A stretch of 64,000 nt of DNA from an uncultured bacterium (GCA_964512205.1 CAZEGK010000004.1:34634-98633), one strand, 5' to 3'. Counted from the first letter of the stretch, positions 6,003 to 23,427 are shown. Notes: generated from the sequence alone by a model not told the origin. Numbers and translations are program-made.

Positions 6003-6006
6003 ACCT

Positions 6007-6727: not shown

Positions 6728-6969
6728 AGGAATAGGACATTCAATGACACATGCCTCTTCTCCCCGGGAAGTGTAAAGGGCCGGATCCTTTCATTTGCCG
6801 CTTGAAGGGGCCTTCTCTAAAGTAAGATTCAATGCGACGCTAAGGAACAAAAACTCAAAAAAAGTGCAACTGGAAATCCTTTTACTTTAAGTAAGGTTCG
6901 ATAAATCAGAAATAGGTCATTATGAAAGTGGTTAATGCTATAATGTAATGATCGCACGAGGAGCGCTTT

Positions 6970-8715
6970 ATGCAATTAGGTTCAGAGTTGCCATATATGG
7001 AGATGAGGCCATGGGAGCTTGATCCATCTACAAATAGGCCAAAAAATGAGGGTAAATGTCTTGCTGCGCTTAGGCTCTTGCAGGAAAATCCCGGCTGGGC
7101 ACACACAAGCGATGCTGGCACATATGGTAAGCTGCTACTTGACACTGTCTCTGAACCTGGTACTCAAGTGCACAAAATACAACAGGCAATTTTGCGCTCC
7201 ACGCCGGAACTTTTTGATAGTGTAACGGTAGAGTTTACCTCAGCAGAACCAATTCAAGTTGCAAAAGTGAGACTGCTTGCATTAGGTGATTTTTTTAATC
7301 TTTCTTCAGTAAAAAAGATGCGCGAGGGGCAAAACAACGTGTGGAAATTTGCTCTGCCAGAAGACGTGCTGCAGAAAGACGTGGAGTCATTTTTAGCCTA
7401 CATCCAAACAGGCAAAATAGCAATTACACCAGATAATGCCATAGCTCTTTTTGATCTTGCTCTACATTTTGACATACAGTCTCTTGGCAAGCAATGCGCT
7501 AGATACTTATTAGAGTGCTTGAACGAGGATATCACGCAATTTCCTACGTTACTTCAGCTAGTGGCATCTCGTCCTGAATACCATGGGTTTGTTGCAGATG
7601 TAAAGTGTCAAATTATTAGATATACTGGATTTTTTAGATATAAGAGTTCACAAAGTGCATTAGCCACAATTCCTCCAGAAAAACAGCCCGATTGCGACTA
7701 TCTTTTAAAGCTTGGAGAAGAAGCATGCTTATATGGCTGCTGTGTTGAGCTTGATACACATGGCAGAAGATGTTTTACATTTGACATGGAAAAGAGATCC
7801 TTCCCGTGTCTTGAAAAGATTCAAAAAACATGTGGCATGCAGGCGATTATCGCGAGCTATCATTTAGACGATAAGGATCTTCGGCGCATAAGCGAAATTT
7901 GCGGAGATAGCTTAGAATGTCTAGAATTTAAATTTAATTGCATGAATAATTGTGAAGGCTGTAGAGAATTTCCTGCGCTTGTATCACTTGATAGTAATTA
8001 CTCTTCTCTTACAAATAAAGGTCTTGAGCACATCAGTCATATCGCTCCAAAGTTAGAAGTACTAAAAATCAATAACTCTACAATAACGAGTGTTAAAGGG
8101 TGCAAGAAGTTTGAAATGCTTCATACTTTAGAAGCTTGTGAGCTCGATCTTGATGATGAAGAAGTGCGTCATTTGAGTCTGCTTGCTCCCAATTTGCAAG
8201 AGCTGCATCTTTCCTCCAATAAACTATTAAGAGATTTTACAGGCTGTCAATTTTTACATCTTCTTAAATTAGATCTTTCGGGTACAAAAATCGATGAATG
8301 GTCCTTGCAGTCTTTAGCTGCTGTCTGCGGCAACCATCTACAGGTTCTCCGTATTGATGACTGCGACAGTGCAAGCTTTGAAGAGTGCAAGTGCAAGTTT
8401 TCAAATTTACGAGAATTATATGCAAATAATTTTTCCAAAAAACCAGCTGATGTCTGGTTACAGAATATAAGCAAATATTTAGGCGAGCGTTTAGAGATAC
8501 TTGAGGTGATCGATACGCGTATTACAAGTTTTGCCGGTTGTTACTTTCCCAAACTTAGAAGGTTAGAAGCCGATTATACTCGGCTTACAAATGAAGGGTT
8601 GCAAGCCTTAAGCAAGAGCGCAGCTGACACTTTAGAAGAACTTAACGTAGAAGATTGCAAGTATCTGGTCCCAGAAGACTTTAAAAAATATTTTCCTAAA
8701 CTAATCGACCAGTAA
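6970..8715 (+). CDS. Eukaryote-like BTB/POZ domain plus leucine-rich repeat (RNI/F-box-LRR type) protein
   Basis: BTB-like block VTVEFTS...KVRLLALGDFFN...FLAYIQTGKIAITPDNAIALFDLALHFDIQSLGKQCARYLLECL, followed by about 8 LRRs of the CxxLxxLxL type (LECLEFKFNCMNNC..., LEVLKINNSTITS, LQELHLSSNKL, LKLDLSGTKI, LQVLRIDDCDS, LEILEVIDTRITS, LRRLEADYTRLTNEGL, LEELNVEDCKYL). Confidence 0.8.
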   Translation: MQLGSELPYMEMRPWELDPSTNRPKNEGKCLAALRLLQENPGWAHTSDAGTYGKLLLDTVSEPGTQVHKIQQAILRSTPELFDSVTVEFTSAEPIQVAKVRLLALGDFFNLSSVKKMREGQNNVWKFALPEDVLQKDVESFLAYIQTGKIAITPDNAIALFDLALHFDIQSLGKQCARYLLECLNEDITQFPTLLQLVASRPEYHGFVADVKCQIIRYTGFFRYKSSQSALATIPPEKQPDCDYLLKLGEEACLYGCCVELDTHGRRCFTFDMEKRSFPCLEKIQKTCGMQAIIASYHLDDKDLRRISEICGDSLECLEFKFNCMNNCEGCREFPALVSLDSNYSSLTNKGLEHISHIAPKLEVLKINNSTITSVKGCKKFEMLHTLEACELDLDDEEVRHLSLLAPNLQELHLSSNKLLRDFTGCQFLHLLKLDLSGTKIDEWSLQSLAAVCGNHLQVLRIDDCDSASFEECKCKFSNLRELYANNFSKKPADVWLQNISKYLGERLEILEVIDTRITSFAGCYFPKLRRLEADYTRLTNEGLQALSKSAADTLEELNVEDCKYLVPEDFKKYFPKLIDQ

Positions 8716-8751
8716 GTCTGGTCTAGTTCTTCTGTGAGCAGGGCCGGCCCC
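8706..8751. repeat. Junction repeat copy A (last 10 nt of the BTB-LRR gene, its 3' flank, and a GC-rich core)
   Basis: cgaccagtaagtctggtctagttcttctgtgagcagggccggcccc; repeated at 16393-16437 with a single 1-nt indel. Confidence 0.85.
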
Positions 8752-9052
8752 GCTCGTTGAGCTAGTTACAAATTTTCTGCAAGATCTTGATTTGTGGATA
8801 GGGTGTAGCTAACGGTAACTTTTGCAAAGAGCTTGGGGATGCGCAGCCTATCCCAGTTTTTTGCTCCCAATAGGCGGTTGCTTTTCAGTTCATGGCGATA
8901 ATCTGGCAATCTGCCTTTTCCTGAGCAAAAAAGATGCCAGGTTTTATAGCATGTCTTGGACCTTGCGGGCCATCGGGTGTTATAAGGACTACTTGATTGC
9001 TTTTAATAGCATCGGCAATCTGTAAAAGGGTGGCCTGTCTTGAATTGTGAGG
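8733..9052. repeat. Left ~320 bp direct repeat (decayed copy of the DUF374 gene 3' end)
   Basis: Colinear with 23107-23427 (offset 14,375 nt). I count about 20 substitutions and no indels by eye. Confidence 0.9.
8766..9052 (-). pseudogene. Orphan 3' fragment of a DUF374/LPLAT-like gene (paralogous to 23140..23748)
   Basis: Encodes ...HNSRQATLLQIADAIKSNQVVLITPDGPQGPRHAIKPGIFFAQEKADCQIIAMN*. The intact gene has ...HNSRHAALLQTVDAITSNKVVLITPDGPRGPRHAIKPGIFFAQEKADCQIIAMNWKATSYWELK.... TGG->TGA creates a premature stop and the 5' two-thirds is missing. Confidence 0.85.
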
Positions 9053-9363
9053 AAGCTTGTGCCGCAAGAGCAGTTTCTCCAAAAAGATGCAGGCAGCTAT
9101 TGCCCGTATCTTGAGACCCAATTGTTACATCTGGTTTATGCTTTGCAAAGAGCCGTATGATAGTAACATCGCCAGATTCCACAGCTACATATAAAGCACT
9201 TTTTCCCTGCTAACTCGATTTACGTTATCAGGGGTAATAAGGCGCTCGATCTCTTTAAGGGGGTTTTTTCTAGTATCGCACTATGAAGAATCTCTTCAAC
9301 TGCTACTACCGGCTGCTGAGATCCAAATCCAAGTCTTGCAATACCTGATTGTAAAAAATTCAT
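9053..9363 (-). pseudogene. Ankyrin-repeat protein gene remnant (at least 2 frameshifts, 3' truncated)
   Basis: Hand translation gives three frame pieces. ATG at 9363 gives MNFLQSGIARLGFGSQQPVVAVEEILHSAILEK. After a shift, NPLKEIERLITPDNVNRVSREK. After another shift, GKSALYVAVESGDVTIIRLFAKHKPDVTIGSQDTGNSCLHLFGE, which fits the ANK consensus G.tALh.A...G...iv.lL. It ends at the junction with the DUF374 fragment. Confidence 0.55.
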
Positions 9364-9554
9364 ACTGAAGTGATCGCTTTAATTGAGATTGTTTATCGAT
9401 TTTCTCAAGACAGGTTCTCAAAAAATACATTTAGATCAAAGTTGAACGAGCAGCAGAAAGCTTCGGAAAAAATCTATATTGCATAAAAAAAACTAAATTT
9501 GTACGTTGTTTCGAAACTTTGCTGGGTATCTTTGCTCAGCCTGTAACAAAAAGG

Positions 9555-12500
9555 ATGAAAATGATACGAAAATTTCAAATAGTATGCCTCACAGTTCTCT
9601 TTGGACTGTTTTTTGGGCAGGTTTCTGCTGCAGGCAAATGTAGAGGCTGTAACGACTCGAGCTCTCACTCTACTAAACAGAGAAGACATAAGAAAACATG
9701 CAAGCTATGCTCGCTCAAAGCGACAGAAATTGATGTTGGCACGCTTCGCGCAACAGAAATCGAAGCTGAAAAGATCGATGCTGGGGAGATCACTGTCAAT
9801 GGTTGTGAAACTGTCCGGGGAGTGGTTGTTGCGGAAAGTTCACTCGCAAATCCATGCTTTACCTTCACATGTAATGCACTTGTGAACATCCAAGATATTA
9901 ATATCGAGAAAAAACTTTTAGAATCTCCCCAGACTCTGACAAATCCATTAGAGGCTTTGCCGATTTTGACTCCAGGCTCTGATGAAAGCTGCCCGGAAGT
10001 CCCTGTAGGTGGAGATCCTTTGGTTACTGCGATTGTGGACCAAGGATTTTCTTTTCAGCAAGATTGGTTGATCTTTACCAACACAAGCGATCTTCCAACA
10101 GCACCAAGTCCAACAGCTAGTGCGGGACCCTGGTATTTTGAAAAAGAACCATACCAGACAACTAACAGAACAGTTATCACATGTGGATGCCGCGAAATTT
10201 ATGATCCTACTTCGCAAAGAGATGATGAGCAGTATCCTCCACATGAGCCCAATACAAATTCTACCATTGAAATTACCTTTGATACGTCAATTTTAGACCC
10301 TCTCGTATCTGAAGTATCGTTGGAACTTGAATATGCCTATTCTTCAGAAGCCAATTACGACTTCTTTACAATCTCCTCAGGCACTACAACCTTTTTCCAA
10401 GGATCGGGTCCTGGACCGAGTGTAGACAATCCATACAACAGAGGCACTCTTACAGTCAAAGTGCCTAAAACTTCATCTGTTATAATTAATTACTATAGAG
10501 ACCCTGCAGTGTACGGCGGTGTTGATTCGGTCTACTTTACAATCAACAAGGCAATACCTGTTTTCCCAATTGAAGTTCCTACACGCCTGCAACTAAAGCG
10601 CGGCAATACTGTTCTCAAAGATTATGGGTATTTGATTGACCTTGATGGCACTAAAGTAAATGAACTCGTGGTGGATTGCCCAATCAGCATTCAAGCCGGA
10701 GATCAACTCTGTTTAGAGGCAGATCCTACGATCTATCAAACCTACAACGTTTCTGCTGAATACCAAAATATTCCTCAGATTAAAGATCATCGTTCCAAGG
10801 AAAACTTTTTTGCACCTGTGCAAATTAATAACCTCGGGTACAACAACCGCTTTCCAACAGATCTTTCAACACTGGAAGGTTGGTACAACACCGACGATCA
10901 GTTTATCCAAAACCTCGTATATATCCAGCAGGTGCAAAATTGCGATACCAATGGCATTCCACAGCTTTCTCTATCTCGCTATTCACTCGCAAGTAGTGGA
11001 CCTTTCTTTGTAAATGGATATTGGAGCGGCACTGCACCTAGCTATTTTACACAGGTAGGAAATAATAGATTTCAAGATAACGCAAGCTTTCTCTTCTATA
11101 ACTTTGATCCTCTTACAGGAGAGATGCGACTAGATCCAGATCCTAGCAACTTGCCTGGTATTGGCAGTACAGGCTACACTGTGTTTAAGCCTATCAAAAA
11201 TACAGACCCCAGATACTGGCAGTATAATTTTGATCTGGTAGATCCGGAACACGAATTTAACCCGCCAATAAACTTTTTTGACTTTGTTGGAGAGTATTAC
11301 AAAACAGGCTATATCTCGTCACAATTTGGAATTTCTTCCTATCCTACTTGGCCTGATATCAATCCTTTAAACCTCGATCAAACTCAATACGCGGCATCAT
11401 TTGGTGTGAGCTCAAAAGCACAGTATGATGATCTATTTCGTCGTTTGAGAGATATTGGGGTTCAACGAAAATATGGCGTACAGAGATTTATCTACTGGCC
11501 ATATCCAGGATCTGATCTCACAGATTCGCAAAAAGCGAGCCTTCGCTGGGTAGTTAACCAGAATCGCTATCCATTCTTAGGCTTTGTAACAAAATTGGAA
11601 AATGAAGGTGAAAATACCTTTGCACGCCTCTGCCCAGGAGAGACGGTCTATCTGAAAGGCACAAATACACGCTTTGACGATTTTCCACTTCGTCTTGCTA
11701 TGGATGGCTATCATACAGGGCCAAAACCAGGACCTGAATTTATGCAAACCTATTCAGGTACTGACCCACGCACAGATGATCCAATCCCATCTGATTTAAG
11801 CTATAATATTTATGATCAGTGGAGCTACTATACAGCCCGCCTTCCTATTACTATAGATGAGAGCAACAACAAGATCTATTCTCGAGGTGGAGGACGCTCT
11901 AGATTTGGAGATGAGCCTTTTTACTTAGATCTACTTGTGAACTCTAATCCGCCACTTGGACTTGGACCATACAGTGTCTACTCAAGCCTTTTGGGACCAA
12001 ACGTTGGTTTAAATCCAATTGCAGGCAATGTCGTGATTGCAGATCCTATTGATGCAAGCACACCGCTCAATAACGCAGCTGAAGTGAACGGCAACGTACT
12101 TATTGTAGTCTTTGGTTCTGTTGGAAGTGGCACAATTGTTGCAAATGCAGCAGCTGCCGGAGCTACTGGAGTCATTATAGTCGATGATACAGTGGAATCA
12201 CTTGCTGATTTTAGCATTGGAGGTGCCGGAGTCATTCCTTCTGTGGCCATTACAAATGTAGATGGAATGGCGCTTATCGATGCTATTACTGATGGTGCAG
12301 AAGTAGATGTTCAAACAGAGCTTAATAGCCCTATCTTTGAAACAACACTTCCTTCTGGAACCTATTATCTCAGCGATATTTATCAGTTACTATATGATCA
12401 ATATCTTGCTGGAGAGACAGAGTTTTTCATCGAAGTTGGAAACTTCATATCAGGTGAATATGGGGTAGATGATTTATTTGTTCTTTCTGGAACAGCGCAA

Positions 12501-14549
12501 GCGCTTCTATTTGGTCCAGAAGATCCAAATTATCCTTCAAATTTCTTTGGACCTACTGGTCTTGATGTAGGATACCTTTGGGATCCGACTGATGTACCTT
12601 TGGTCTCTGAATACCAAGGATTGTCAGAGAATTTCTTTGATGGCTCTTATGCCCAGATTTTGCCTGGCGAGTATAAGACTCATACTCCGCTAACATCAGA
12701 AGAGGCTCAGGCCCTTATTGATGCACTGGATAACGAAACTGTAACTGTGGAGACTCAGCACGGACCAATCACGTACGAGTCAACATATGAAAACTTTGTA
12801 GCCTGCATCAATGAACTCAGCATGCAGAAAGGAACTGAGGATCACACGATGCTTACTCCATGGGTACATAAATGTGACAATGGGCTATTTGAACTGCCTA
12901 TTTCTATGCAGTCGCTGTTAAATGATTTGAAGCTTATTGACTTTGATGAAACAGCTACTTATGTAGCACCATTTAACGATCTAGACGATGAAAACTCTGC
13001 TATTCCAGGAGTCCCTATATCCGCTACTTTTGCGCCTACGCTCTATTGCATAAGCGTGAGAGCTACCGGAACTGGCCATCCAGGAGAGTTCTCCGAAATG
13101 TACAACGCTGGACTCGATAGATCAAGTATCGAAGATCAGTCTCGTTCAGAAGGAAGACTTGAGTGGATTGTACCGAGAAATGGAGATATTTTAATATATC
13201 CCGAGGGAACGGTATTGCCTATCGGAGATCTGAGTGGTCGTTCTGTTGAAATTCCAATTGTAAACTATTTGGAAGATCCACAATGGCTCGGATACACGAC
13301 AAATAATGGAGCACCTGATTATAACTTCATTCCTTATGTCGAGAGCACTGGCCTTGGGCCATTTGCAGATACTGCTGTGGCGGGTTCTTGGTTAATTGGA
13401 GTTATGCAGCCTGAAAAGACACGTGAAATTTTGCAGCTTGCACCAAATGATCCAGTACCAGGTATTGGCTATATCACATGGTATGAATCGATGTGGTCGA
13501 GTGATGGAGATTCCTCACTTTTACCTTGGTATGATCCAAACTTTAGTTCGGTGGATCCAGCAGCCTTAGTGGCTGTAGGAAGAGTGTTGCAGTACTTCAA
13601 TGAGAATGACGTTAAACACATCATTATCGATGTAAGAAACACCATTGGAGGAGGCGAGCCCTTCTGGAACGCTTTTGCCGCAGCGGTTGGAGGAAAGCGC
13701 TACTTTAACGTTACCGATGTCACACCAGTACTGTCTTTAGAGCCTAACGGAATTACTTCTGTTCGTACTACAGCCAACTTTCAAGTGGCGAAGGAAAATG
13801 CAGGAGTAGTTACCTACAACTATCAAGACACAATTTTGGATTGTAATCCAGATGCGTTTGTGGCTGCAGGTTTTACCGACTACATTCCGGGAGGAATATG
13901 GAATGGCGAAGTGACAGGTCAGGCTGATTTAGGACTTAAATCCAACATCATCTGGCTTTCCAATGCAACTGCAATTTCAAACCCTCAGTACAAATGTTTA
14001 CTTGTGAAGGGAACAAGTAAGGACCAAGTTGAGTATAATGGCGATTTTGGACGCTCTACCCAATTTATTGAGTATGGTGTCTACTATCGACCCTTCTCGA
14101 CTAGTGGGAATTACGATTCCTATATCAACTGGTGGACCAAAAATCGAGCTGGTGCCGAAGAAAATCCTCGTGGTTTGATGTATGCGCTCGATCGCTGGGA
14201 AGCAAGCCGATCAGGCTATATGGATGGCAATGTGGATGCACAAGGCGGTGTGTTGAAGGGACTTGATCAAGAATTTAGCAACCTTCATAGACCACAAATT
14301 AAGTGGGATATGAATGCTAACGTCTTCTTCCAAGATATCGGCTATACCATAGGCAACATTGGAACAAGTGTGGATCCGGTAACAGATGGAGAGCCATGGC
14401 TACAAGATCGCTACACCGGAATTGCGTTTGATAATCCGCTTACCTTCCGCGACTCAACTCTTGAGAGATGTGTTCAGATGGTATGTGATCCAAACGTCAG
14501 TTCGCACTTCTATCAAGATGATGGCTACGGATATGTGTCCGAGCCGTAA
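9555..14549 (+). CDS. Giant secreted protein with PA (protease-associated) domain and C-terminal S41 (Tsp/CPAF/tricorn-core)-like signature
   Basis: Signal peptide MKMIRKFQIVCLTVLFGLFFGQVSAA (alternative start 9561, 5 nt after AAGGA). Cys/Lys-rich leader GKCRGCNDSSSHSTKQRRHKKTCKLCS. PA-like block NGNVLIVVFGSVGSGTIVANAAAAGATGVIIVDD...GGAGVIPSVAITNVDGMALIDAI (about nt 12040-12300). IIIDVRNTIGGGEP (nt 13621-13665) resembles the S41 DxRxNxGG motif, followed by IIWLSNATAISNPQ...LLVKGTSKD. Confidence 0.85.
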   Translation: MKMIRKFQIVCLTVLFGLFFGQVSAAGKCRGCNDSSSHSTKQRRHKKTCKLCSLKATEIDVGTLRATEIEAEKIDAGEITVNGCETVRGVVVAESSLANPCFTFTCNALVNIQDINIEKKLLESPQTLTNPLEALPILTPGSDESCPEVPVGGDPLVTAIVDQGFSFQQDWLIFTNTSDLPTAPSPTASAGPWYFEKEPYQTTNRTVITCGCREIYDPTSQRDDEQYPPHEPNTNSTIEITFDTSILDPLVSEVSLELEYAYSSEANYDFFTISSGTTTFFQGSGPGPSVDNPYNRGTLTVKVPKTSSVIINYYRDPAVYGGVDSVYFTINKAIPVFPIEVPTRLQLKRGNTVLKDYGYLIDLDGTKVNELVVDCPISIQAGDQLCLEADPTIYQTYNVSAEYQNIPQIKDHRSKENFFAPVQINNLGYNNRFPTDLSTLEGWYNTDDQFIQNLVYIQQVQNCDTNGIPQLSLSRYSLASSGPFFVNGYWSGTAPSYFTQVGNNRFQDNASFLFYNFDPLTGEMRLDPDPSNLPGIGSTGYTVFKPIKNTDPRYWQYNFDLVDPEHEFNPPINFFDFVGEYYKTGYISSQFGISSYPTWPDINPLNLDQTQYAASFGVSSKAQYDDLFRRLRDIGVQRKYGVQRFIYWPYPGSDLTDSQKASLRWVVNQNRYPFLGFVTKLENEGENTFARLCPGETVYLKGTNTRFDDFPLRLAMDGYHTGPKPGPEFMQTYSGTDPRTDDPIPSDLSYNIYDQWSYYTARLPITIDESNNKIYSRGGGRSRFGDEPFYLDLLVNSNPPLGLGPYSVYSSLLGPNVGLNPIAGNVVIADPIDASTPLNNAAEVNGNVLIVVFGSVGSGTIVANAAAAGATGVIIVDDTVESLADFSIGGAGVIPSVAITNVDGMALIDAITDGAEVDVQTELNSPIFETTLPSGTYYLSDIYQLLYDQYLAGETEFFIEVGNFISGEYGVDDLFVLSGTAQALLFGPEDPNYPSNFFGPTGLDVGYLWDPTDVPLVSEYQGLSENFFDGSYAQILPGEYKTHTPLTSEEAQALIDALDNETVTVETQHGPITYESTYENFVACINELSMQKGTEDHTMLTPWVHKCDNGLFELPISMQSLLNDLKLIDFDETATYVAPFNDLDDENSAIPGVPISATFAPTLYCISVRATGTGHPGEFSEMYNAGLDRSSIEDQSRSEGRLEWIVPRNGDILIYPEGTVLPIGDLSGRSVEIPIVNYLEDPQWLGYTTNNGAPDYNFIPYVESTGLGPFADTAVAGSWLIGVMQPEKTREILQLAPNDPVPGIGYITWYESMWSSDGDSSLLPWYDPNFSSVDPAALVAVGRVLQYFNENDVKHIIIDVRNTIGGGEPFWNAFAAAVGGKRYFNVTDVTPVLSLEPNGITSVRTTANFQVAKENAGVVTYNYQDTILDCNPDAFVAAGFTDYIPGGIWNGEVTGQADLGLKSNIIWLSNATAISNPQYKCLLVKGTSKDQVEYNGDFGRSTQFIEYGVYYRPFSTSGNYDSYINWWTKNRAGAEENPRGLMYALDRWEASRSGYMDGNVDAQGGVLKGLDQEFSNLHRPQIKWDMNANVFFQDIGYTIGNIGTSVDPVTDGEPWLQDRYTGIAFDNPLTFRDSTLERCVQMVCDPNVSSHFYQDDGYGYVSEP

Positions 14550-14568
14550 GTAGAAGCCATCTTCAGAA

Positions 14569-14604
14569 AGAGTAGACCGCATCCTGCAGTCTACTCTTTT
14601 TTTT
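14569..14604 (+). terminator. Rho-independent terminator after the giant ORF
   Basis: Stem agagtagac (14569-14577) / gtctactct (14589-14597), followed by a T-run ending at 14604. Confidence 0.75.
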
Positions 14605-16073: not shown

Positions 16074-16101
16074 AAAGATGGCTGCATAGATACTGTGAAC
16101 C

Positions 16102-16135
16102 GAGAATTCAGGCACGGTCACGTGCCTGAATTCTC
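16102..16135 (+). terminator. Strong hairpin downstream of the 259-aa gene
   Basis: Perfect 15-bp stem gagaattcaggcacg / cgtgcctgaattctc with a 4-nt loop. There is no clean T-run, so terminator function is uncertain. Confidence 0.45.
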
Positions 16136-16392
16136 TCATTTATTGACTCGTTTGCAAAGCTTTGTCAACACCCTCAACTATCAGCTCTCCTCTCTATTTC
16201 CATCTTATCGTGGATGATTGCATTTTCTGCGGCGAAAATGGCCTTTGTTTTATGAAGTAACATTCAGGCAAGGTGGCAGCGTCGATTCGCAAGGCGTTGT
16301 TCGGAAGTGAGTAATCAGGTGCTTGGAAGTTGATATAGTGAATAAAAGTGGATGTGATGGACGTTGTCCATAAGAAGTTTTTTGGTGCTTAC

Positions 16393-16437
16393 CGACCAGT
16401 AAGTCTGGTCAGTTCTTCTGTGAGCAGGGCCGGCCCC
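16393..16437. repeat. Junction repeat copy B (internal copy of left flank plus GC-rich core)
   Basis: cgaccagtaagtctggtcagttcttctgtgagcagggccggcccc matches 8706-8751 except for one missing t. The sequence diverges immediately after ggcccc. Confidence 0.85.
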
Positions 16438-16541
16438 CCTTTCACCTTTCGGTAGGCAAGCCGATGCCTCTTAATATGCGTTGCTCGGGATTACAAAGAT
16501 CATTATCTTTATTTTTGCGCTTTGCACTCAAGTAATATTTT

Positions 16542-16626
16542 TGCCAGAATCTCCAATAAAATTGGAGAAACTGGCAAAAATATGGCGAAATACAACCATT
16601 TTCTCCAAAAAAATTGGAGAATCTGG
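16542..16626 (+). promoter_or_regulatory. Two inverted repeats upstream of abiEi (candidate antitoxin operator pair)
   Basis: IR1 16542-16576: tgccagaatctccaat-aaa-attggagaaactggca (16-bp arms, 2 mismatches). IR2 16596-16626: ccattttctccaa-aaaaa-ttggagaatctgg (13-bp arms, 2 mismatches). Shared half-site CCAnnnTCTCCAA. IR2 ends 25 nt before the ATG. Confidence 0.5.
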
Positions 16627-16650
16627 TAGAATTAGGGTAGGAGCGTGAAC

Positions 16651-17268
16651 ATGGAATTATTACGTTCTTTTGACACAGCCTATATTGAAACACAGACTTT
16701 GCTCCCTTTACTGAGTAGCTACACCAATCCCCATGATGTTATTTCGCGCCTTTGTAAGAATGGGGAGCTCATTCGCCTAAAAAACGGCTTCTACATCATT
16801 GCAGAAAAAATTAAGAATTCCAGAGTACCGTATGAACAGATTGCTAATCTCCTTTATGGTCCTTCCTATATCAGCTATGAATGGGCTCTTTCTTATTACG
16901 GGATGATCCCTGAAGGGGTATATGTGCTAACATCTGCAAGTTTTCTTAAGTCCAAAAACTATAAAACAGCTCTTGCTACCTTTGAATATACTCCCTTAAG
17001 CAAGCAGCGCTATGTTGTTGGGATAGATTTAAAAGAAAACAGTGCGGGGAATTTTTTGATTGCAACTCCTGAGAAAGCTTTAGCTGACCTTGTGCACCAA
17101 AAAAGCAAGCATCTTTCAAGTAAAGACCTGCTTATAGACCTTGTGGAGGCACGAAGGATAGATGAAAGTGATTTGAAAAATCTTGATAAATCACATCTTG
17201 CAGAGATAGCTGAGAGTTATCGTTCAACTGCAGTACATACACTTCTCAACGTTATAGGTCGCATATGA
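16651..17268 (+). CDS. AbiEi-family antitoxin (type IV toxin-antitoxin / abortive infection AbiE)
   Basis: N-terminal wHTH-like ...VISRLCKNGELIRLKNGFYII..., then LLYGPSYISYEWALSYYGMIPE and ATPEKALADL, typical of AbiEi_4 proteins. TAGGAG lies 7 nt before ATG 16651 (the track used GTG 16645). Confidence 0.75.
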   Translation: MELLRSFDTAYIETQTLLPLLSSYTNPHDVISRLCKNGELIRLKNGFYIIAEKIKNSRVPYEQIANLLYGPSYISYEWALSYYGMIPEGVYVLTSASFLKSKNYKTALATFEYTPLSKQRYVVGIDLKENSAGNFLIATPEKALADLVHQKSKHLSSKDLLIDLVEARRIDESDLKNLDKSHLAEIAESYRSTAVHTLLNVIGRI

Positions 17269-17408
17269 CAAAGCCTACTATTACAAAAATGCTTGAGCAT
17301 TACCAAAATTCAAAAGTTCAAGAGCAGACAAAACTTCGCGAAATTCTTCATTGGTCTAAGGACTATTTCCACGCGCTGGTTGATCATATTACGGTTGAAA
17401 AGTCTTAA
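17265..17408 (+). pseudogene. Truncated AbiEii-like toxin (N-terminal 47 codons only)
   Basis: ATGA overlap with the abiEi stop. MTKPTITKMLEHYQNSKVQEQTKLREILHWSKDYFHALVDHITVEKS* resembles the start of AbiEii nucleotidyltransferases (ML..Y......ALREI.Q...L) but stops before any NTase motif. Full-length toxins are several-fold longer. Confidence 0.5.
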
Positions 17409-17415
17409 GGTGTGT

Positions 17416-17950
17416 TTATGCCTTTTTTACAAGGCATTCGAAGAGGCTCGAATCGAGGTAGATTTTGCCATCTTCTGCTGCTATGTTGTACTTGAGCATT
17501 TCATCGGTAATATCGGATAAAAAAGCTTCTTTTTGTTCGACGACATAGTGTAAGGAGCAAAAGGCTGCAGCGAGATCAAATTGCTCAATAAAGTTCATTG
17601 AGGCGATATCAAGCTGCTGAAAGAGCAGGTTTTGCAATGTGAATGATTGTGAGGAATGAGCTATCATATGTTGCGATATATCGATGCCTGACAAGGCCTT
17701 GGTGTATATACTATCTAAAACTATTGATGCCGGTAATGAAACGTTTAAGCACATCTTAGGCCAACTCCACAAATAGAGTGAATCGCATACCCCGGCCCCT
17801 TATACACAGCTGGCATCCCAAGCAGTTTGTTTTTTTCGACAATGCCGCTAAGCGATGCTGAGGCATCGAGAATCGAATACTGCGAATGCACATGTAGGTG
17901 AACAAATGGGCCCATGTTCTTATTCCCTCACAACCTGAATTTATACCCAA
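17416..17950 (-). pseudogene. Class I SAM-dependent methyltransferase remnant (frameshifted, C-terminally truncated)
   Basis: ORF 17416..17772 has ALSGIDISQHMIAHS and FDLAAAFCSLHYVVEQKEAFLSDI (post-I and motif II/III-like). The upstream piece 17756..17950 is in another frame (…KKTNCLGCQLCIRGRG…, a degenerate motif I). It abuts the truncated abiEii. Confidence 0.5.
17763..17803. repeat. ~41-nt repeat family, copy 1
   Basis: aactccacaaatagagtgaatcgcataccccggccccttat; about 33/41 identical to 20761-20801. Confidence 0.75.
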
Positions 17951-18144
17951 ACAACTTCAAGGGATGCTCCTCGAGCTTGCGATAATTATTTTACTTGACG
18001 ATTTAGATTTTTTGAGCTAGAAGTAATCAGATTTAAATTTTATCTGAGAGGCTTTCTCGAAATTCCGCACGAGTTTTGAAAAGTCTCTGCAAGACCTCCT
18101 GTTGCCCTAAAGTGTCCTATTTAACATAAAACAATGGAAAAGCT

Positions 18145-20415
18145 ATGAAGTTTTTAAGTTATTTAGCTGTCCTTGGCCTGTGTGCTGGAACAGTAAGTGC
18201 AGATGATTCGTGCTGCAAAAGTATAAAAAAAGAATTAAAAAAGATTGCCAAAAGGCAAAAACCAGATTGCTGTGAAACTACGCCAATCTGCCAAAATGTG
18301 ATTAACAGAAATGGCGGAACACTCCTTCTCAATAAATCTGGTACCTATGCACTTACAGAAGATGTTGTGGGAACATTAATTGTAGTAGCAGATAGCGTCT
18401 GCATCGATCTTTGCTGCCATACACTGAGTGCTGGTGGTAGAGCAAGTGCAATCGTTGCAAATGGCCATGAAGGACTTGATGTCTATAACGGACGCATTAT
18501 CAATACAACAGATGCAGCAATCTTAGTGCAGGATTATGACTCAGTAGAGCTTTATGACCTTACTATGAGTGGAAATGTCTTTGATTCTATCCGTGAGCAG
18601 AATTCTGTCGATCTTCGTGTGCATAATGTAAATTTTGTAAATGACAATGAAGGTGAGCGCGCGCTCTACTTTAATTCATGTGACAATATAGTTGTTAAAA
18701 ACTGCAATGCATCAGGCTTTTTAAGCACTATTGGAGCGATTATTCAGTTCGATACCTGCAATGCAGGATCACTTGAAAATATTGATGTTACAAGCAATAC
18801 CAAAACATCCGCAGCAGATGTTGATGAATTTAGTGCTGGCACTGCGTTAGTAGCAGTAACAGAAAGTACGGGCGTTGATTTTGTTCACGTAAAAGTAAAC
18901 AACAACACCTTTGACAACAGCGTACCTGTTGCCGATCAGAACAATCATTGGAGAACAGCTGAGGCTATTGCCTTCTTTTCTTCAAATAACTGTTCACTTC
19001 ATCAATGTGAAACAAGTAACAATACTGATGTTGCTGGCAATGTCGCTACAACAGATACAGAAGATTACATGCTCCTTTTCATTTTTTGTGACAGTTGTAT
19101 CGTAACAGAACATCAATCAAATACCAATAGCTGCACGCAGCCAATACTCTATTTTGTTGCAATTGGGTGCTTAGATTCAGCTAACAATAGATTTGAAGGT
19201 TGTCAGGCAAATAGTAATTTAGTCTCAGAATTATTTGTCCTACCTGGCTCCGAATCTGGTATGGTCCCTATGTGGGTTGCCGAGTATTTTGATTTTGCAT
19301 TAAGTAATGGAAATGTGCTACGAAATTGCCAGGCTAACTTTAATACTGTTACATTAGGTGGAGCAGGCCGTACTGATTTTGATAGTGCCGCTTACAATGA
19401 AGCCATATTAGTTGGAGGAACTGATAGCGTAGTTGATCATTGCCAAGCAAATAACAATACGATGGGAGATAATCAACCATTTACAGCAGCTTTGGGGATT
19501 GCTTCTATTGGAACCAATACAAAGATACTTAATTCAACCGCAGATAACAATACTGGTGGTGGAGAGTCGTTTGGTATTAATTTGTTTTTTTCAAATTTGG
19601 GGAGTCATGGCCGTAATCCACTCATCTCAAATTGCTCAGCAAGTTCTAACGGTAACTGGGGAATCCAGGTTGGATTTGATGGTGATTTAACAGAAACAAT
19701 TCTTGATGTTGTGATCGAAGATTGTGTTTGCAACAAAAATGGAGGTCAATCAGGTCCTGCAGCAGGAATCATTGTTGTACCTGTTCAACCTGGTGCAACA
19801 AATATCTTCATTAAAGGTTGTCAAGTCTATGATACAACGTCCTCTGATGGCGATGCCACAGGAATTAGTGTAACGAACGCAAGAAATGTAGTGATAGAAG
19901 ATTGCGAAGTCTTTACTACGACAGCGGATGGTCTTGGCCATGGCATTCTCTTTGATACAGTTACTGACTCCAAAATTATACGCACACAGGTTCATGAGAA
20001 CCAAAATAGCGGCGTAGAAATTATTGGCGACAATAGCAACATTGCGATTATCGAATGTATTGCTATGAGTAACAACATAGGTTTTGATTTTGCTATTGGA
20101 TCCACAGCATCATGCAGCCTTGTTCAAGACTCTCGTGCTATAGATAACAGCGTAGCTGGATTTGCTTACCCTATCGGGCCGCTTACTGTTACCTTCATTG
20201 GTAATGAATCGCAGTGCAATGGTGAGACCATATGTGCAAACTATTCAAATTTAAATGGCACCATCAATCTGCAGGAACTTAGCTGGTTTGATGGTTCTAT
20301 TACACCGGTTAACCCTGTAGGACCGGGTGCAGCAGCCCCTGGTGCACGCTTTACAAACCTTATTGCAGTACCGACATTTACTTCAATTGCGGGCTGCATT
20401 GCACCTCCTCCGTAA
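18145..20415 (+). CDS. Secreted right-handed parallel beta-helix repeat protein with Cys-rich N-terminal module
   Basis: Signal peptide MKFLSYLAVLGLCAGTVSA. Leader DDSCCKSIKKELKKIAKRQKPDCCETTPIC. Repeated PbH1-like turns (NVVIEDCEVFTT..GHGILFDTVTDSKIIRTQVHENQNSGVEIIGDNSNIAIIECIAMSNNIGFDF; NIVVKNCNASGF; NCQANFN / HCQANNN / GCQANSN). No C-terminal autotransporter barrel is evident. Confidence 0.8.
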   Translation: MKFLSYLAVLGLCAGTVSADDSCCKSIKKELKKIAKRQKPDCCETTPICQNVINRNGGTLLLNKSGTYALTEDVVGTLIVVADSVCIDLCCHTLSAGGRASAIVANGHEGLDVYNGRIINTTDAAILVQDYDSVELYDLTMSGNVFDSIREQNSVDLRVHNVNFVNDNEGERALYFNSCDNIVVKNCNASGFLSTIGAIIQFDTCNAGSLENIDVTSNTKTSAADVDEFSAGTALVAVTESTGVDFVHVKVNNNTFDNSVPVADQNNHWRTAEAIAFFSSNNCSLHQCETSNNTDVAGNVATTDTEDYMLLFIFCDSCIVTEHQSNTNSCTQPILYFVAIGCLDSANNRFEGCQANSNLVSELFVLPGSESGMVPMWVAEYFDFALSNGNVLRNCQANFNTVTLGGAGRTDFDSAAYNEAILVGGTDSVVDHCQANNNTMGDNQPFTAALGIASIGTNTKILNSTADNNTGGGESFGINLFFSNLGSHGRNPLISNCSASSNGNWGIQVGFDGDLTETILDVVIEDCVCNKNGGQSGPAAGIIVVPVQPGATNIFIKGCQVYDTTSSDGDATGISVTNARNVVIEDCEVFTTTADGLGHGILFDTVTDSKIIRTQVHENQNSGVEIIGDNSNIAIIECIAMSNNIGFDFAIGSTASCSLVQDSRAIDNSVAGFAYPIGPLTVTFIGNESQCNGETICANYSNLNGTINLQELSWFDGSITPVNPVGPGAAAPGARFTNLIAVPTFTSIAGCIAPPP

Positions 20416-20424
20416 AGCAATCAT

Positions 20425-20454
20425 TTGCCCATCTCTACTTGATGAGGTGGGCAA
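20425..20454 (+). terminator. Hairpin after the beta-helix gene
   Basis: 11-bp stem ttgcccatctc / gaggtgggcaa (one G-U pair) with an 8-nt loop, 10 nt after the stop. No T-run. Confidence 0.4.
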
Positions 20455-20760
20455 CTCCATCAAAAACAATAAGGAATAGTTATCAAGATTCGCACTTACT
20501 TCGCTTTATGTGTATCCACGGACCGTTAAATCTAGTGTTTTTGCTTTTGAATGGAGCGTGTGCACAGTGGCGCATACGAAGGGAAAGCTGATAACAAATT
20601 GGGGATATGGTACTGGGGGAGAGTATTTTCAATATGGGCAAAGACCCCTAGCAAGAGTTGCTCAATTGTAGAAATCTCGGCTTACAGCAGCAAGGAAAAA
20701 TCAAGAATTAGAGAAATTTGCGACTAACCTAGTCGATAATTTAGGCTCATTTGTTTGCGA

Positions 20761-20801
20761 AACTCCACAAATCGAGTGAACTTCAGATCCAGGCCCCTTG
20801 T
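20761..20801. repeat. ~41-nt repeat family, copy 2
   Basis: aactccacaaatcgagtgaacttcagatccaggccccttgt. Its flank (tttaggctcatttgtttgcg) also weakly resembles the flank of copy 1. Confidence 0.75.
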
Positions 20802-20854
20802 GCGGAGGGGGGGGTATTTCGGAGGGCCGACAAAAAGCCGGCGCGTTACTAGGT

Positions 20855-21676
20855 TTACGCTAGAAGCCCTACCATTTGTAAAATGCGAGCACATTCAACA
20901 AGCTTATCTTTTGTAAAGATGGCGAGTTTATTTTTTGCATTTTCAAGGTGATACTCAGCTGTTCTGTAAGAGATGCCCAAGCTTTGAGCTTGTTCTTTAG
21001 CAGTTTTGAGCTCGCAAGCAGCAAGCAATGCCTCTTTTTCGCGCCGAGAGAGTGTTTTGGCAAAAGTAAAGAGAGAGGGGGAAACTCCAATTTGCTGGAG
21101 AAACTGAGCGTGACTTTCTGGATTAGGGAGGCAATTACTTCCATAGCTTTTGTTATAATAGCGATTCTTTCCCTTTAACTCAGCTAAATTGATGCTAGTT
21201 TCTTCTGATAACGTTTTGAATTTCTTGGTTTCGGCCAAAAAGTAGTTAAGATAGCTGTTAAGTAGAGGCAGATTATTGCTATAAAAAGAGGGTAGAGTGA
21301 GGAGCTTCTGACGAGAAGCAAAGCCAAAGATATGTGCCTTGGACGCGCTCTCTTTGCGTATAATAATAAGCGGATGATGCAGCGGGTGTTTTTGTTCTAA
21401 GTTACGAATAACTTTTTCGAAATGTGTGTCAAAATCAAGATAAAAATAGCCAGGTGTTAGGCATGAGGGTGCTACAAGGAAATGCGCGTCATTATACCAT
21501 TGACTCTCATAAAAATAGCTCAACTGGTCATGAAAGTTAGAGGTATTTGAAAGATATCCTTCTTCGGTAATCTGGATATGCCAGAAATTGTCAATGCCAA
21601 AATTGCATTTTAATGGGTCGGTAATTTTCTTTAAGGTATCCTGGCACCTTTCGTTATATGTAAAAAAATCCCTCAT
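20855..21676 (-). CDS. LuxR-family transcriptional regulator (autoinducer-binding-like N-domain plus C-terminal HTH), paralog 1
   Basis: C-terminal LuxR/GerE HTH LSRREKEALLAACELKTAKEQAQSLGISYRTAEYHLENAKNKL. The N-domain aligns by eye with paralog 2 (31717..32535). Lengths are 273 and 272 aa. Confidence 0.8.
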   Translation of the reverse strand: MRDFFTYNERCQDTLKKITDPLKCNFGIDNFWHIQITEEGYLSNTSNFHDQLSYFYESQWYNDAHFLVAPSCLTPGYFYLDFDTHFEKVIRNLEQKHPLHHPLIIIRKESASKAHIFGFASRQKLLTLPSFYSNNLPLLNSYLNYFLAETKKFKTLSEETSINLAELKGKNRYYNKSYGSNCLPNPESHAQFLQQIGVSPSLFTFAKTLSRREKEALLAACELKTAKEQAQSLGISYRTAEYHLENAKNKLAIFTKDKLVECARILQMVGLLA

Positions 21677-21730
21677 CTTGCACCTTTGTAAAAATAATTA
21701 TATTACAATCTATGGTTTTTGTCAAGGGAA

Positions 21731-21789
21731 TATAACAAATTTGTATAACAAATTCCTGCTGGAACTAGCCAGTCGTTCCAGCAGGAATT
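21731..21789. promoter_or_regulatory. Repeat/palindrome cluster in the spacer between the lipase-like gene and LuxR paralog 1
   Basis: Direct repeat TATAACAAATT x2 (21731-21741, 21744-21754) containing the palindrome ACAAATTTGT. A perfect 14-bp inverted repeat aattcctgctggaa (21751-21764) / ttccagcaggaatt (21776-21789) with an 11-nt spacer. Confidence 0.45.
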
Positions 21790-21801
21790 GCGAGCGGGTT
21801 A

Positions 21802-22695
21802 TTAAAGAGTTTTTGCTAGTGCTTCAAGAGTTGATCTAAAAGTAAATAGCTTATGGCATGTGGTATCAACCGCTGAGGCATATCCTGCAATGTGCTGTTT
21901 CATTTCAGGTGTTACATGAGTTAAGGTTTTCATTGATAACGTAGGTTTTACGGAGCATGGAATTAAGGTGACATCGTAGTCTCTCATGCAAGAGGCATAC
22001 TTTGTGTATCGCTCTTCAACACCCGCTACATTATCAGGATTTCCTGTCCAAAAATTATTCACAAATTCTGGAATTCTTTCAGGTCCCCATTGATACTCTC
22101 TAAACCAATCCTCTTTAAATTGAGCAACTACAGCTTCTTCTAATGGGACCTCATCAAGGCGCATTCTGTCGGTAAGCTTTATAATTTTTTCTAAAGTATG
22201 TTCTAGGTCAAATTTGTCATTACCAGCTCTACAAATCATGTCGCCCTTGGCAACATAATTTTTAACATTGCCTGCAAGCATTTTGGGGATCATTACAACA
22301 CCACCAAATGAGTACACATCAACTAGATCTGCTATTTCTGGCTGTAATTTTTCAAGGGCAAGTTTTGTGATGAGTGCCCCATGGCTATGTGCAAATACAG
22401 GAACTCGTTGATTGCCAGACTTTTCCACCTGTTCACGCATACAGCGAGCAAATTGAGTTGCAATCTCATCAATTTTTTGTCTTTGTTCTTCGCTATTTGT
22501 GAAAAACTCTCCCAGCCCAGTTGGATTATTAAAAACAACTAACTTACGAGAAAAAATTGAGCTTAGAAGGCTGGTTTGATCATTAAGATTCCCTCTTTGT
22601 CCTTCATCATCATGATTAGAGCAAATTCCATTACAATAGACTAATGGTGTCTGTTGGGTAGTACCCGGGATTTCAAAGATTCTTACTGCTTGCAT
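21802..22695 (-). CDS. Alpha/beta-hydrolase fold protein (lipase/esterase-like)
   Basis: Nucleophile-elbow-like VFAHSHGALI (xHSxG) after a beta-strand. TAGGAG lies 6 nt before the ATG. Family not identified further. Confidence 0.55.
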   Translation of the reverse strand: MQAVRIFEIPGTTQQTPLVYCNGICSNHDDEGQRGNLNDQTSLLSSIFSRKLVVFNNPTGLGEFFTNSEEQRQKIDEIATQFARCMREQVEKSGNQRVPVFAHSHGALITKLALEKLQPEIADLVDVYSFGGVVMIPKMLAGNVKNYVAKGDMICRAGNDKFDLEHTLEKIIKLTDRMRLDEVPLEEAVVAQFKEDWFREYQWGPERIPEFVNNFWTGNPDNVAGVEERYTKYASCMRDYDVTLIPCSVKPTLSMKTLTHVTPEMKQHIAGYASAVDTTCHKLFTFRSTLEALAKTL

Positions 22696-22755
22696 AAATA
22701 ACTCCTATCTGTATTATTAAAAAATATAAATTATAAAACTGAATTTAAACCAATT

Positions 22756-22787
22756 AAAACTAATAGTAAAAACTAATAGTAATAGTA
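22756..22787. repeat. Tandem 13-bp repeat in the AT-rich region upstream of the lipase-like gene
   Basis: aaaactaatagta x2 (22756-22768, 22769-22781) followed by the partial unit atagta. Confidence 0.8.
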
Positions 22788-23052
22788 TAAAGTTTATTAT
22801 GTATGGAGATTTTAAAAACACCGTATAAAATACGGGATTTAGAGGCTTCACTTGTCTTGTTTAAGGGCAAGTAAGGCAATGATCTTCGCCTTAATAATTA
22901 CTGGCATCATCGTGTTGAGAATTAGAGGATAGTTCGCATGCTTTTCATAGGTTTTTATGCACTTGCTATAAGCTTTTTTCTTAAAGTAGAATTGGGTACG
23001 AAAATGCCATGGTAGTGACGGCGATGGCGACGTGGATAGGGAATAAAATGAG

Positions 23053-23087
23053 AAATCCACTTAATGTGGAGACCCCAGGCCCCTTGT
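23053..23087. repeat. ~41-nt repeat family, diverged copy 3
   Basis: aaatccacttaatgtggagaccccaggccccttgt shares both ends (a.tccac ... ccaggccccttgt) with copies 1 and 2. It lies 20 nt from the right direct repeat. Confidence 0.5.
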
Positions 23088-23106
23088 TGCTGTATGCGCT
23101 CTGATA

Positions 23107-23427
23107 TGTGAGCAGGGGCGGCCCCGCTCGTTGAGCTAGTTACAAATTTTCTGCAAGATCTTGTTTTGTGGATAGGGTGTAGCTAACGGTAACTTTTGCA
23201 AAGGGCTTGGGGATGCGCAGCCTATCCCAGCTTTTTAGCTCCCAATACGAGGTTGCTTTCCAGTTCATAGCGATAATCTGGCAATCTGCCTTTTCCTGAG
23301 CAAAAAAGATGCCAGGTTTTATGGCATGTCTTGGACCTCGCGGGCCATCGGGTGTTATGAGGACTACTTTATTGCTTGTAATAGCATCGACAGTCTGTAA
23401 GAGGGCGGCATGTCTTGAATTGTGGGG
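23107..23427. repeat. Right ~320 bp direct repeat (intact 3' end of the DUF374 gene plus 33 nt downstream)
   Basis: See 8733-9052. Confidence 0.9.

Follow-up and report, generated by a model that had tools for sequence, protein, structure and literature searches.

Probable nested, integrase-less insertions beside DUF374 in an accessory-gene hotspot of an uncultured chlamydia

We analysed a stretch of 64,000 nucleotides from an uncultured chlamydia (GCA_964512205.1 CAZEGK010000004.1:34634-98633; hereafter, the window), in which two direct repeats made from the 3' end of the DUF374 gene enclose 14.05 kb of accessory DNA in a gap between the core genes plsX and DUF374. We favor, with a probability of roughly 0.55, an origin in two nested insertions that were duplicative and integrase-less, made in a hotspot at the hairpin-rich 3' end of DUF374 by host or trans-acting recombination, after which the distal copy of the tail decayed neutrally. 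On our best reading, the repeat is the scar of duplicative insertion into the region of the terminator and 3' end of DUF374, and not the att pair of one self-mobile island. An earlier note, made from the sequence alone, had described an intact gene, its cargo, and a displaced gene tail; this arrangement is genuine, while the single island proposed there is split into two blocks by a third junction at 16393-16440. The locus is best seen as a composite accretion without an integrase in a hotspot flanked by core genes, rather than a tidy island bounded by att repeats.

The two repeats and the gene from which they are made are:

8733-9052, minus strand: left repeat, an orphan DUF374 tail pseudogene with Trp changed to stop, a 1-nt deletion, R to Q in GPRGP, and P to L in IPKPF
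23107-23427, minus strand: right repeat, made of core c'' (below), a 3' flank of 33 nt, and the final 95 codons of the functional DUF374 with its stop
23140-23748, minus strand: intact DUF374 (LPLAT-like) gene (Pfam PF04028, E = 1.5e-12), the conserved right border of the hotspot

A repeat search, MAFFT, and a self-BLASTN of the whole window agree on 321 aligned columns with 93.8% identity (E = 1.6e-137), bearing out the direct repeat of about 320 bp that had been aligned by eye. The 20 substitutions counted at that time are there, but the copies are not free of indels: the left copy lacks 1 nt in a T-run, opposite base 23237 of the right copy, which takes the offset from 14,374 up to 14,375 and puts the orphan tail out of frame. 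The repeat measures about 320-322 bp, or ~347 nt when the adjoining hairpin element X is counted in (8706-9052).

The left copy is an orphan, decaying pseudogene, and the right copy is the tail of the functional DUF374. As the earlier note had it, the right copy belongs to the lpxB operon: DUF374 is the last gene of this operon, and lpxB lies directly upstream and overlaps it (PF02684, E = 2e-80). In the public protein record, DUF374 starts at Met15 (188 aa). The stop in the left copy is the change of TGG to TGA that had been noted, and the GPRGP motif that carries the R to Q change is invariant. When the differences are polarised against five orthologs, nearly all of the nonsynonymous ones prove to have arisen in the left copy and to affect invariant sites; measured against every ortholog, the left copy is 8-10 points more distant than the right. 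The dN/dS between the copies is 0.55 and dS is about 0.10, values that fit two copies identical at the start, one of which then evolved neutrally while the other was constrained; a diverged donor allele is not needed. We considered and rejected a foreign replacement tail in the functional DUF374, given that identity is unbroken at the repeat boundary and that the left copy is uniformly more diverged. At the novel joint 9052|9053, the orphan tail is fused head-to-tail to the 5' fragment of an ankyrin-like gene.

As a separate observation, DUF374 of the window and its ortholog in the nearest relative (locus L001) are 62% identical in the C-terminal half and 72% in the N-terminal half, with the drop falling in the last ~60 residues, away from the repeat boundary. 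Among the other 14 pairs of DUF374 orthologs, the tail is better conserved in 13 and the halves are about equal in one.

The three junctions are built from a small set of shared pieces:

8706-8732, plus strand: X, comprising the last 10 nt of the BTB-LRR gene with its stop TAA (8713-8715), which lies inside the hairpin GACCAG-TAAGT-CTGGTC, and a T-rich tail; repeated at 16393-16418
8733-8751, plus strand: core c, left copy, TGTGAGCAGGGCCGGCCCC (0 matches expected by chance), a GC-rich half-palindrome with GGCCGGCC
16393-16440, plus strand: middle junction, X' plus core c', in which motif M is at its most complete, GCAGGGCCGGCCCCCCTTTCAC
23107 onward, at the start of the right repeat: core c'', right copy, with one mismatch, GGGGCGGCC

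Self-comparison of the whole 64-kb window yields just two repeat pairs, the long repeat and 8706-8754 versus 16393-16440 (49 nt, 96% identical), and the left junction takes part in both. With the third junction, the segment is not one unit, and at least two nested events are implied. A core of 19-22 nt is common to all three junctions in the same orientation. The junctions read X-c-Y on the left (where Y is the DUF374 tail), X-c-Z in the middle, and W-c-Y on the right, and their identity blocks are very unequal in length (19-22, 47, and 322 nt). On the left, the GC-rich hairpin lies 16 nt past the DUF374 stop and follows the terminator hairpin of the BTB-LRR gene. The left junction looks like an uninterrupted convergent intergenic region, and the middle and right junctions each resemble one half of it, attached to unrelated DNA. 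Three of the four novel joints fall at the base of a hairpin or within one. The crossover core lies downstream of the DUF374 stop codon, outside the open reading frame (ORF), so that integration there needs no replacement tail, unlike classical 3'-end integration. In the self-comparison, terminal inverted repeats or microhomology at the block ends amounted only to chance matches of 7-8 nt.

The sequence GGCCGGCC is expected ~0.3 times in the window and is found only at the junctions, with the right copy mutated to GGGGCGGCC; it is contained in a broader pattern, GCAGGG(G)CCGGCCC..TTTCAC, which we call motif M. In another chlamydial locus, L004 (LpxB 70%), an extended motif, GCAGGGGCCGGCCC-TTTT(T/C)AC, occurs four times, always in variable DNA downstream of DUF374 and never in a terminator position. 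Two of these copies mark the right-hand ends of a direct repeat of 94 nt, 100% identical (11203-11296 and 13865-13958), around a 2.6-kb block, and the remaining two belong to a tandem mini-array of 3-4 units on the opposite strand (14890-14995). A fuzzy search for the motif in 567 kb of chlamydial loci returned 7 sites, compared with 0-2 in simulations, confined to two hotspots. Neither the nearest relative nor any of the 28 loci fetched by the time of the scan contains the core, and its pattern has 0 matches in the viral collection. As a candidate for a widespread att site or repetitive extragenic palindrome (REP), the core was rejected: its 10 exact matches in metagenomes all lie on contigs of 61-75% GC with no other similarity to the window, and look like chance.

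To place the locus, we used LpxB-anchored loci from 26 chlamydial metagenome-assembled genomes (MAGs). Public data hold no other genome of the same species, and the nearest DUF374 in them apart from the window's own is 67% identical. The features on the left side of the gap are:

5097-6002, plus strand: plsX-type gene (FA_synthesis; Pfam PF02504, E = 5e-54), the conserved left border of the hotspot
6006-6092, no strand assigned: conserved non-coding element just after the plsX stop, 78-80% identical to the post-DUF374 spacer in L027 and L028 and alignable in L001
6093-8705, plus strand: Block 0, accessory, with two small ORFs and the BTB-LRR gene
6007-6258 and 6248-6727, plus strand: the small ORFs of Block 0, the former overlapping the element at 6006-6092
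6970-8715, plus strand: BTB-LRR gene (Pfam BTB and LRR_4)

The loci share a backbone of an RNase E/G-like gene, a permease, YceD, and plsX, then the gap, then DUF374, lpxB, and onward. In two relatives the gap is empty: plsX and DUF374 adjoin tail to tail, in convergent orientation, ~290 bp apart in the nearest relative (L001, LpxB 87%) and ~110 bp apart in L028. A third, L027, probably has the same empty arrangement, with its flank only partly on the contig. Across the relatives, the gap holds 0.1-8 kb of unrelated accessory genes, including 3.5 kb with AAA_21 and RloB in L025, 4.8 kb with collagen-like and ankyrin genes in L005, and 8 kb with ankyrin, Ser/Thr kinase, and TPR genes and a Y1 transposase related to the insertion sequence (IS) IS200 in L026. 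The gap has the pattern of a chromosomal hotspot between convergent core genes; of the bacterial hotspots surveyed across 80 species, 27% were without any mobility protein (PMC5635113).

In the empty sites (L001 and L028), DUF374 is abutted by plsX and not by the BTB-LRR gene; the empty site foreseen in the earlier note, with the BTB-LRR flank against DUF374, occurs in no relative. It follows that the BTB-LRR block, which has no match at this locus in any relative, is also accessory, and that the left repeat lies inside, not at the edge of, a 17-kb variable region. The element at 6006-6092 appears to be a remnant of the ancestral spacer between plsX and DUF374, which would put the true left edge of the inserted DNA at ~6093. 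The DNA between the repeats is likewise absent from this locus in every relative compared, and the whole of ~6093-23106 (17 kb) appears to be an addition to the ancestral arrangement. Each of the 8 relatives that have DUF374 carries its tail once.

The same comparison gave several observations on this region in their own right. The ~90-nt element at 6006-6092 is conserved despite 60-70% protein-level divergence of the neighboring genes and might act as a small RNA, a terminator, or a regulatory element; Rfam matched no family in the window, this element included. The transposase gene in L026 (14183-15244, 313 aa) lies between perfect inverted repeats of 28 nt, an arrangement that resembles a REPtron or an IS. 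Two loci carry long palindromes that resemble miniature inverted-repeat transposable elements, each as an inverted pair: 334 nt in L005 (3118-3451 and 14002-14333) and 163 nt in L025 (2461-2623 and 11824-11986). The two elements are unrelated to each other, further copies of the L005 element occur in L041, and each pair brackets the conserved lpxB block, with one copy in the DUF374-proximal gap and the other beyond the block.

That the segment holds no integrase, transposase, or tRNA had been stated before, and our searches agree. The window contains no tRNA or tmRNA; the cargo ORFs gave no integrase, transposase, or relaxase with Pfam, NCBIfam, PHROGs, or PADLOC; and neither they nor the non-ORF stretches between 8716 and 23139, all searched in six frames with Pfam, yielded a recombinase at E <= 0.1. 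No remnant of a module from an integrative and conjugative element (ICE) or integrative and mobilizable element (IME) was seen in the ORFs or six-frame scans of the segment, and no HUH or Y1 gene came up in scans of the 64-kb window. The ORFs that were scanned outside the segment included no mobility genes, and the remaining backbone ORFs were judged to be ordinary chromosomal genes by eye only. In the intergenic stretches where degraded recombinases had been suspected, the six-frame scan found none and gave fragments of a ubiquitin C-terminal hydrolase (UCH), a methyltransferase, and a DnaE-like protein instead.

In the path that we propose, the starting state would have been BTB-LRR, terminator hairpin X, GC-rich hairpin c, the DUF374 tail, and the rest of DUF374. 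In event 1, block E1 (9053-16392) would have been inserted with duplication of a target of ~347 nt (X, c, and the last 95 codons; 8706-9052). In event 2, block E2 (16441-23106) would have entered the DUF374-proximal copy at the GGCCGGCC palindrome, leaving a core of ~20 nt on both sides, probably by recombination between the target core and the same REP-like motif on the incoming DNA. The middle copy in the window matches the L004 consensus through ...TTTCAC, such that the left end of E2 has the 3' part of the motif, which favors motif-to-motif recombination for this event. The distal tail, with neither promoter nor 5' half, would then have decayed neutrally, with the proximal copy under selection. 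The segment encodes no recombinase; the joining may have been the work of host recombination or repair, or of an enzyme supplied in trans. We infer the order of events, as we do the enzymology and an intermediate that could be circular or linear. Two events make the shortest path that reproduces all four novel joints, and in the opposite order the incoming DNA would already have to carry a DUF374 tail.

Several points weigh against this proposal. The pre-insertion state, BTB-LRR-X-c-DUF374 without interruption, is inferred and is observed in no genome, the nearest DUF374 being 67% identical. The mechanism of long target duplication, one of the classes that we invoke below, is itself unknown. 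A 19-nt core present three times in one orientation would also be expected from tandem site-specific accretion, and 19-22 nt is short for RecA-dependent recombination. The ratio of identity in the tail to that in the N-terminal part of DUF374 is oddly low between the window and L001, at 0.87 compared with 0.98-1.30 in other pairs. Our comparison covers the locus only, with the remainder of the genome, plasmids, and trans-acting recombinases beyond its view. Finally, generic repair leaves a single feature unaccounted for, the recurrence of motif M, which lies at repeat ends in L004 and hints at a dedicated recombination site. There is a small chance that motif M is the recombination site of an undescribed system of environmental chlamydiae, in which a trans-acting recombinase would shuttle multi-kb blocks, among them one with the giant PA-domain gene described below, into the hotspot between plsX and DUF374, leaving one copy of the motif per insertion and occasionally capturing a flank such as the DUF374 tail. 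If true, this would be a new mechanism of gene shuffling; on present evidence, it is a minority possibility.

Our best candidate classes for the two insertions are Campbell-type integration and "insertion with long target duplication", a phenomenon reportedly described by Nobusato et al. in 2000. In the latter class, inserts of <20 kb with no integrase are flanked by variable duplications of 46-423 bp, often over the 3' end of a gene, and carry restriction-modification (R-M) genes (Furuta, Abe & Kobayashi 2010, PMC2853133). Given this precedent, the earlier statement that no known type of element explains the locus was too strong. Like these cases, the insert here is <20 kb (14.05 kb) and has no mobility genes, its repeats are long and variable (~347/322 and ~20-47 bp), and the repeat overlaps the 3' end of a gene. 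The target duplication likewise exceeds 30 bp, the DUF374 tail being single-copy in relatives and the exact empty target not observed. Unlike these cases, which define the class on R-M insertions between strains of one species, the locus has no R-M system (the insert contains no restriction enzyme and only a methyltransferase remnant), its nearest empty site is in a different genus-level lineage, there are two nested events, and a GC-rich palindrome lies at the joints.

Other known systems share part of this picture. As in systems of REPs and REP-associated tyrosine transposases (RAYTs), a short GC-rich extragenic palindrome lies at the joints, dispersed or in tandem in L004, and a Y1 transposase lies in the gap of L026; unlike in those systems, there are only three copies in the 64-kb window, all at joints, and no RAYT was found in the window. 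Shyamala, Schneider & Ames are said to have reported in 1990 that REP elements serve as join points of duplications. An integron or cassette array differs from the locus, which has no IntI, multi-gene blocks in both orientations, and a motif of 20-26 nt. A site-specific integrative element would have flanking direct repeats like those seen here (94% identical), but there is no tyrosine or serine recombinase or remnant of one, and the empty site of the relatives mismatches the outer flank. The integron, IS200/IS605, REP-RAYT, and IS91-like models all either disagree with one or more of the tested features or call for the whole genome. The locus also resembles the hotspots between core genes that are free of mobile genetic elements (Oliveira, Touchon et al. 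2017, PMC5635113): the interval is variable, its content differs in each relative, its genes are accessory, defence-related, or effector-like, and there are no mobility proteins. In contrast, the model proposed in that work, double homologous recombination in both flanking core genes, leaves no duplication, whereas here a one-sided duplicated tail of the flanking core gene survives.

The blocks could instead be decayed site-specific integrative elements in tandem, as in the accretion of cis-mobilizable elements (CIMEs) at the 3' end of a gene (Pavlovic 2004, Bellanger 2011, reviewed in PMC5704250). The palindrome would then be the att core, E1 and E2 would have arrived in succession beside DUF374 with an integrase that was lost or supplied in trans, for instance a plasmid tyrosine recombinase of the Pgp7/8 type, and the DUF374 tail would stem from an earlier imprecise excision. 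Three co-oriented cores do delimit two blocks with arms patterned like attL, attI, and attR, and direct repeats beside the target gene's end, with no integration or transfer genes, fit the described route, in which an element decays to a CIME and a new integration then occurs at the att site beside the target gene (PMC5704250). The motif also recurs at the ends of the perfect 94-nt direct repeat in the same hotspot of L004, and chlamydial plasmids carry integrases and exchange genes with chromosomes (PMC7846284). We nevertheless consider such an origin unlikely: neither the ORFs nor the six-frame scans hold an integrase, a relaxase, or an ICE/IME module or remnant, identity blocks of 19-22, 47, and 322 nt are unlike a fixed att site, and one arm, 300 nt copied from the target gene, would be superfluous for integration at a core outside the ORF. 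The cargo, moreover, consists of clade-resident genes and fragments without flank synteny, and its proteins have no chlamydial plasmid relatives in PLSDB; the core is missing from the nearest relative and yields only chance matches, in high-GC organisms, in public collections. The repeats are present and mobility genes are absent, and as att sites the repeats are only candidates.

Distinctly improbable, in our view, is rearrangement in situ, in which the cargo was already resident, a tandem duplication joined at ankyrin|DUF374 codon 107 and then deletions made the orphan tail and the 47-nt piece, and the repeats are unrelated to acquisition of the cargo. Tandem duplication is the commonest bacterial rearrangement, the dN/dS and dS values fit initially identical copies from one genome, a deletion end-point would simply set the repeat boundary, and the composition of the cargo is chlamydial. 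To place the X-c piece between E1 and E2, however, at least three events are needed (one duplication and two precisely placed deletions), and neither the coincidence of all joints with two hairpins or a palindrome nor the parallel with the L004 motif is explained. Mobilisation of the blocks in trans by a hairpin-recognising HUH enzyme (Y1/RAYT-type or IS91-like rolling-circle), with the palindrome as a REP-like end or termination signal and with capture of the adjacent DUF374 tail through read-through or one-ended transposition, strikes us as very unlikely. Each of the three blocks does end rightward with the same co-oriented hairpin, the L004 motif acts as a repetitive extragenic palindrome, in a tandem mini-array and not in a terminator position, and the same gap of L026 holds the IS200-like Y1 transposase with 28-nt perfect inverted repeats; but these repeats are unrelated to the motif, the 64-kb window yielded no HUH or Y1 gene, blocks of 7 kb far exceed known IS200/IS605 or REP-associated units, and the left ends of the blocks show no conserved subterminal structures. 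We give hardly any weight to an assembly artefact, a chimeric metagenome contig joined through the shared DUF374 tail. The window does come from one MAG contig, of 104.9 kb, and public data contain no second copy of it; a mis-join crosses the repeat once, whereas here there are two repeat copies, with four distinct flanks and a 6% difference between them, the disabling mutations being limited to one copy, and the nested second repeat is independent evidence that the structure is real.

If two nested insertions made this locus, the class of long target duplications, already described though little known, gains a nested example outside R-M systems, from an obligate intracellular phylum. The gain and shuffling of effector-like genes (BTB-LRR, ankyrin, and UCH) without obvious mobile elements is an open question in Chlamydiae, and the one-sided duplicated tail of a core gene is a rare preserved footprint of the joining step. 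The locus looks like fairly ordinary genome plasticity, with one curious recurring GC-rich palindrome at its joints.

The cargo of the two blocks comprises:

9053-16392, no strand assigned: Block E1, 7.3 kb, from the ankyrin remnant to the perfect hairpin
9053-9352, minus strand: frameshifted 5' fragment of an ankyrin-like gene (Ank_2, E = 0.04, weak; no homolog in the fetched loci)
9519-14549, plus strand: giant PA-domain gene (1676 aa), with the PA domain confirmed
14678-14726 (minus strand) and 14859-14920 (plus strand): inverted pair of a double-hairpin element (~65 nt), downstream of the giant gene
14977-15192, minus strand: decayed remnant of a eukaryote-like UCH (PF00443, E = 5.6e-8), missing from the earlier note
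15294-16073, plus strand: unknown protein of 259 aa
16102-16135: perfect hairpin with a 15-bp stem, GAGAATTCAGGCACG-GTCA-CGTGCCTGAATTCTC, 30 nt after the 259-aa ORF
16441-23106, no strand assigned: Block E2, 6.7 kb
16645-17268, plus strand: AbiEi (PADLOC, E = 2e-58)
After AbiEi, within E2: 75-aa ORF with no match in any library
~17517-17706, minus strand: decayed S-adenosylmethionine methyltransferase remnant of the Methyltransf_11/12/25 type, a small-molecule type
17775-17915, minus strand: DnaE-like PHP N-terminal fragment from the six-frame scan (first ~37 residues, MGPFVHLHVHSQYSILDAS...)
18145-20415, plus strand: beta-helix protein of a multi-copy, Chlamydiales-specific family, without flank synteny
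20855-21676, minus strand: LuxR-type regulator with a LuxR-type helix-turn-helix (HTH)
21802-22695, minus strand: alpha/beta-hydrolase-like protein, a weak match (cutinase/abhydrolase, E ~5e-4, below the curated cut-off)

Much of the cargo had been recognised before: the PA domain, AbiEi, the beta-helix protein, the LuxR-type HTH, and the methyltransferase remnant are all confirmed, while an S41 part of the giant protein and a truncated abiEii, represented by the 75-aa ORF, are not, and the ankyrin (E = 0.04) and lipase-like (E ~5e-4) assignments are weak. The claim that everything between the repeats is non-core is right insofar as this DNA is absent from the locus in relatives, but it misleads with regard to the giant PA protein, whose orthologs elsewhere are 86, 83, and 82% identical, about as conserved as LpxB (87%). 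The giant gene lies at a different locus and in a different neighborhood in each of four genomes (the window, L042, L043/L044, and L045); shared around it are only the gene itself, ~50-95 nt upstream, and the ~65-nt hairpin element downstream. The cargo of the insert is clade-resident, and the insert appears, from the comparison of its genes, to be a patchwork of chlamydial genes, relocated or exchanged, and pieces of genes rather than a foreign element.

Three other ideas about the origin of the cargo were tried and set aside. Composition, proposed as a check, does deviate (GC is 2-4 points below the backbone) but is not diagnostic of foreign DNA, with the tetranucleotide deviation coming from the giant and beta-helix genes, which are clade-resident. 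With regard to a plasmid origin, PLSDB gives only non-chlamydial plasmids for AbiEi (36-37% identity) and nothing for the LuxR-type and hydrolase-like proteins. Nor are E1 and E2 conserved mobile units, in that other contigs share individual genes only, without flank synteny.

Some features of the cargo deserve a brief description. In L043, a pair made of an ankyrin gene and the giant gene is flanked by a 114-nt palindromic repeat (29-142 and 7978-8091). The double-hairpin element occurs once in the nearest relative (L042, 15191-15251), and compensatory changes in its first hairpin (GCGGCG/CGCCGC, GCTGCG/CGCAGC, and GCGGTG/CACCGC) suggest a conserved structure at the level of RNA or DNA. The ankyrin remnant shows no similarity to the ankyrin genes in the relatives' gaps. 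For the 259-aa protein, considered as a candidate hidden recombinase, there was no sequence match in Pfam, NCBIfam, PHROGs, PADLOC, or PDB, and a single-sequence AlphaFold model (pLDDT 49) was too poor to search; the perfect hairpin that follows it is the strongest terminator-like hairpin of the region. The DnaE-like fragment lies in divergent orientation to the beta-helix gene and makes a second piece of a core-type gene within the cargo; the window contains no dnaE.

Outside the hotspot, the window carries a second small insertion relative to L001, at 30745-32622, where L001 has ~76 nt. It holds a 207-aa unknown protein and a LuxR-type regulator (31717-32535), of which the LuxR-type regulator in E2 is a full-length paralog with 27% identity.

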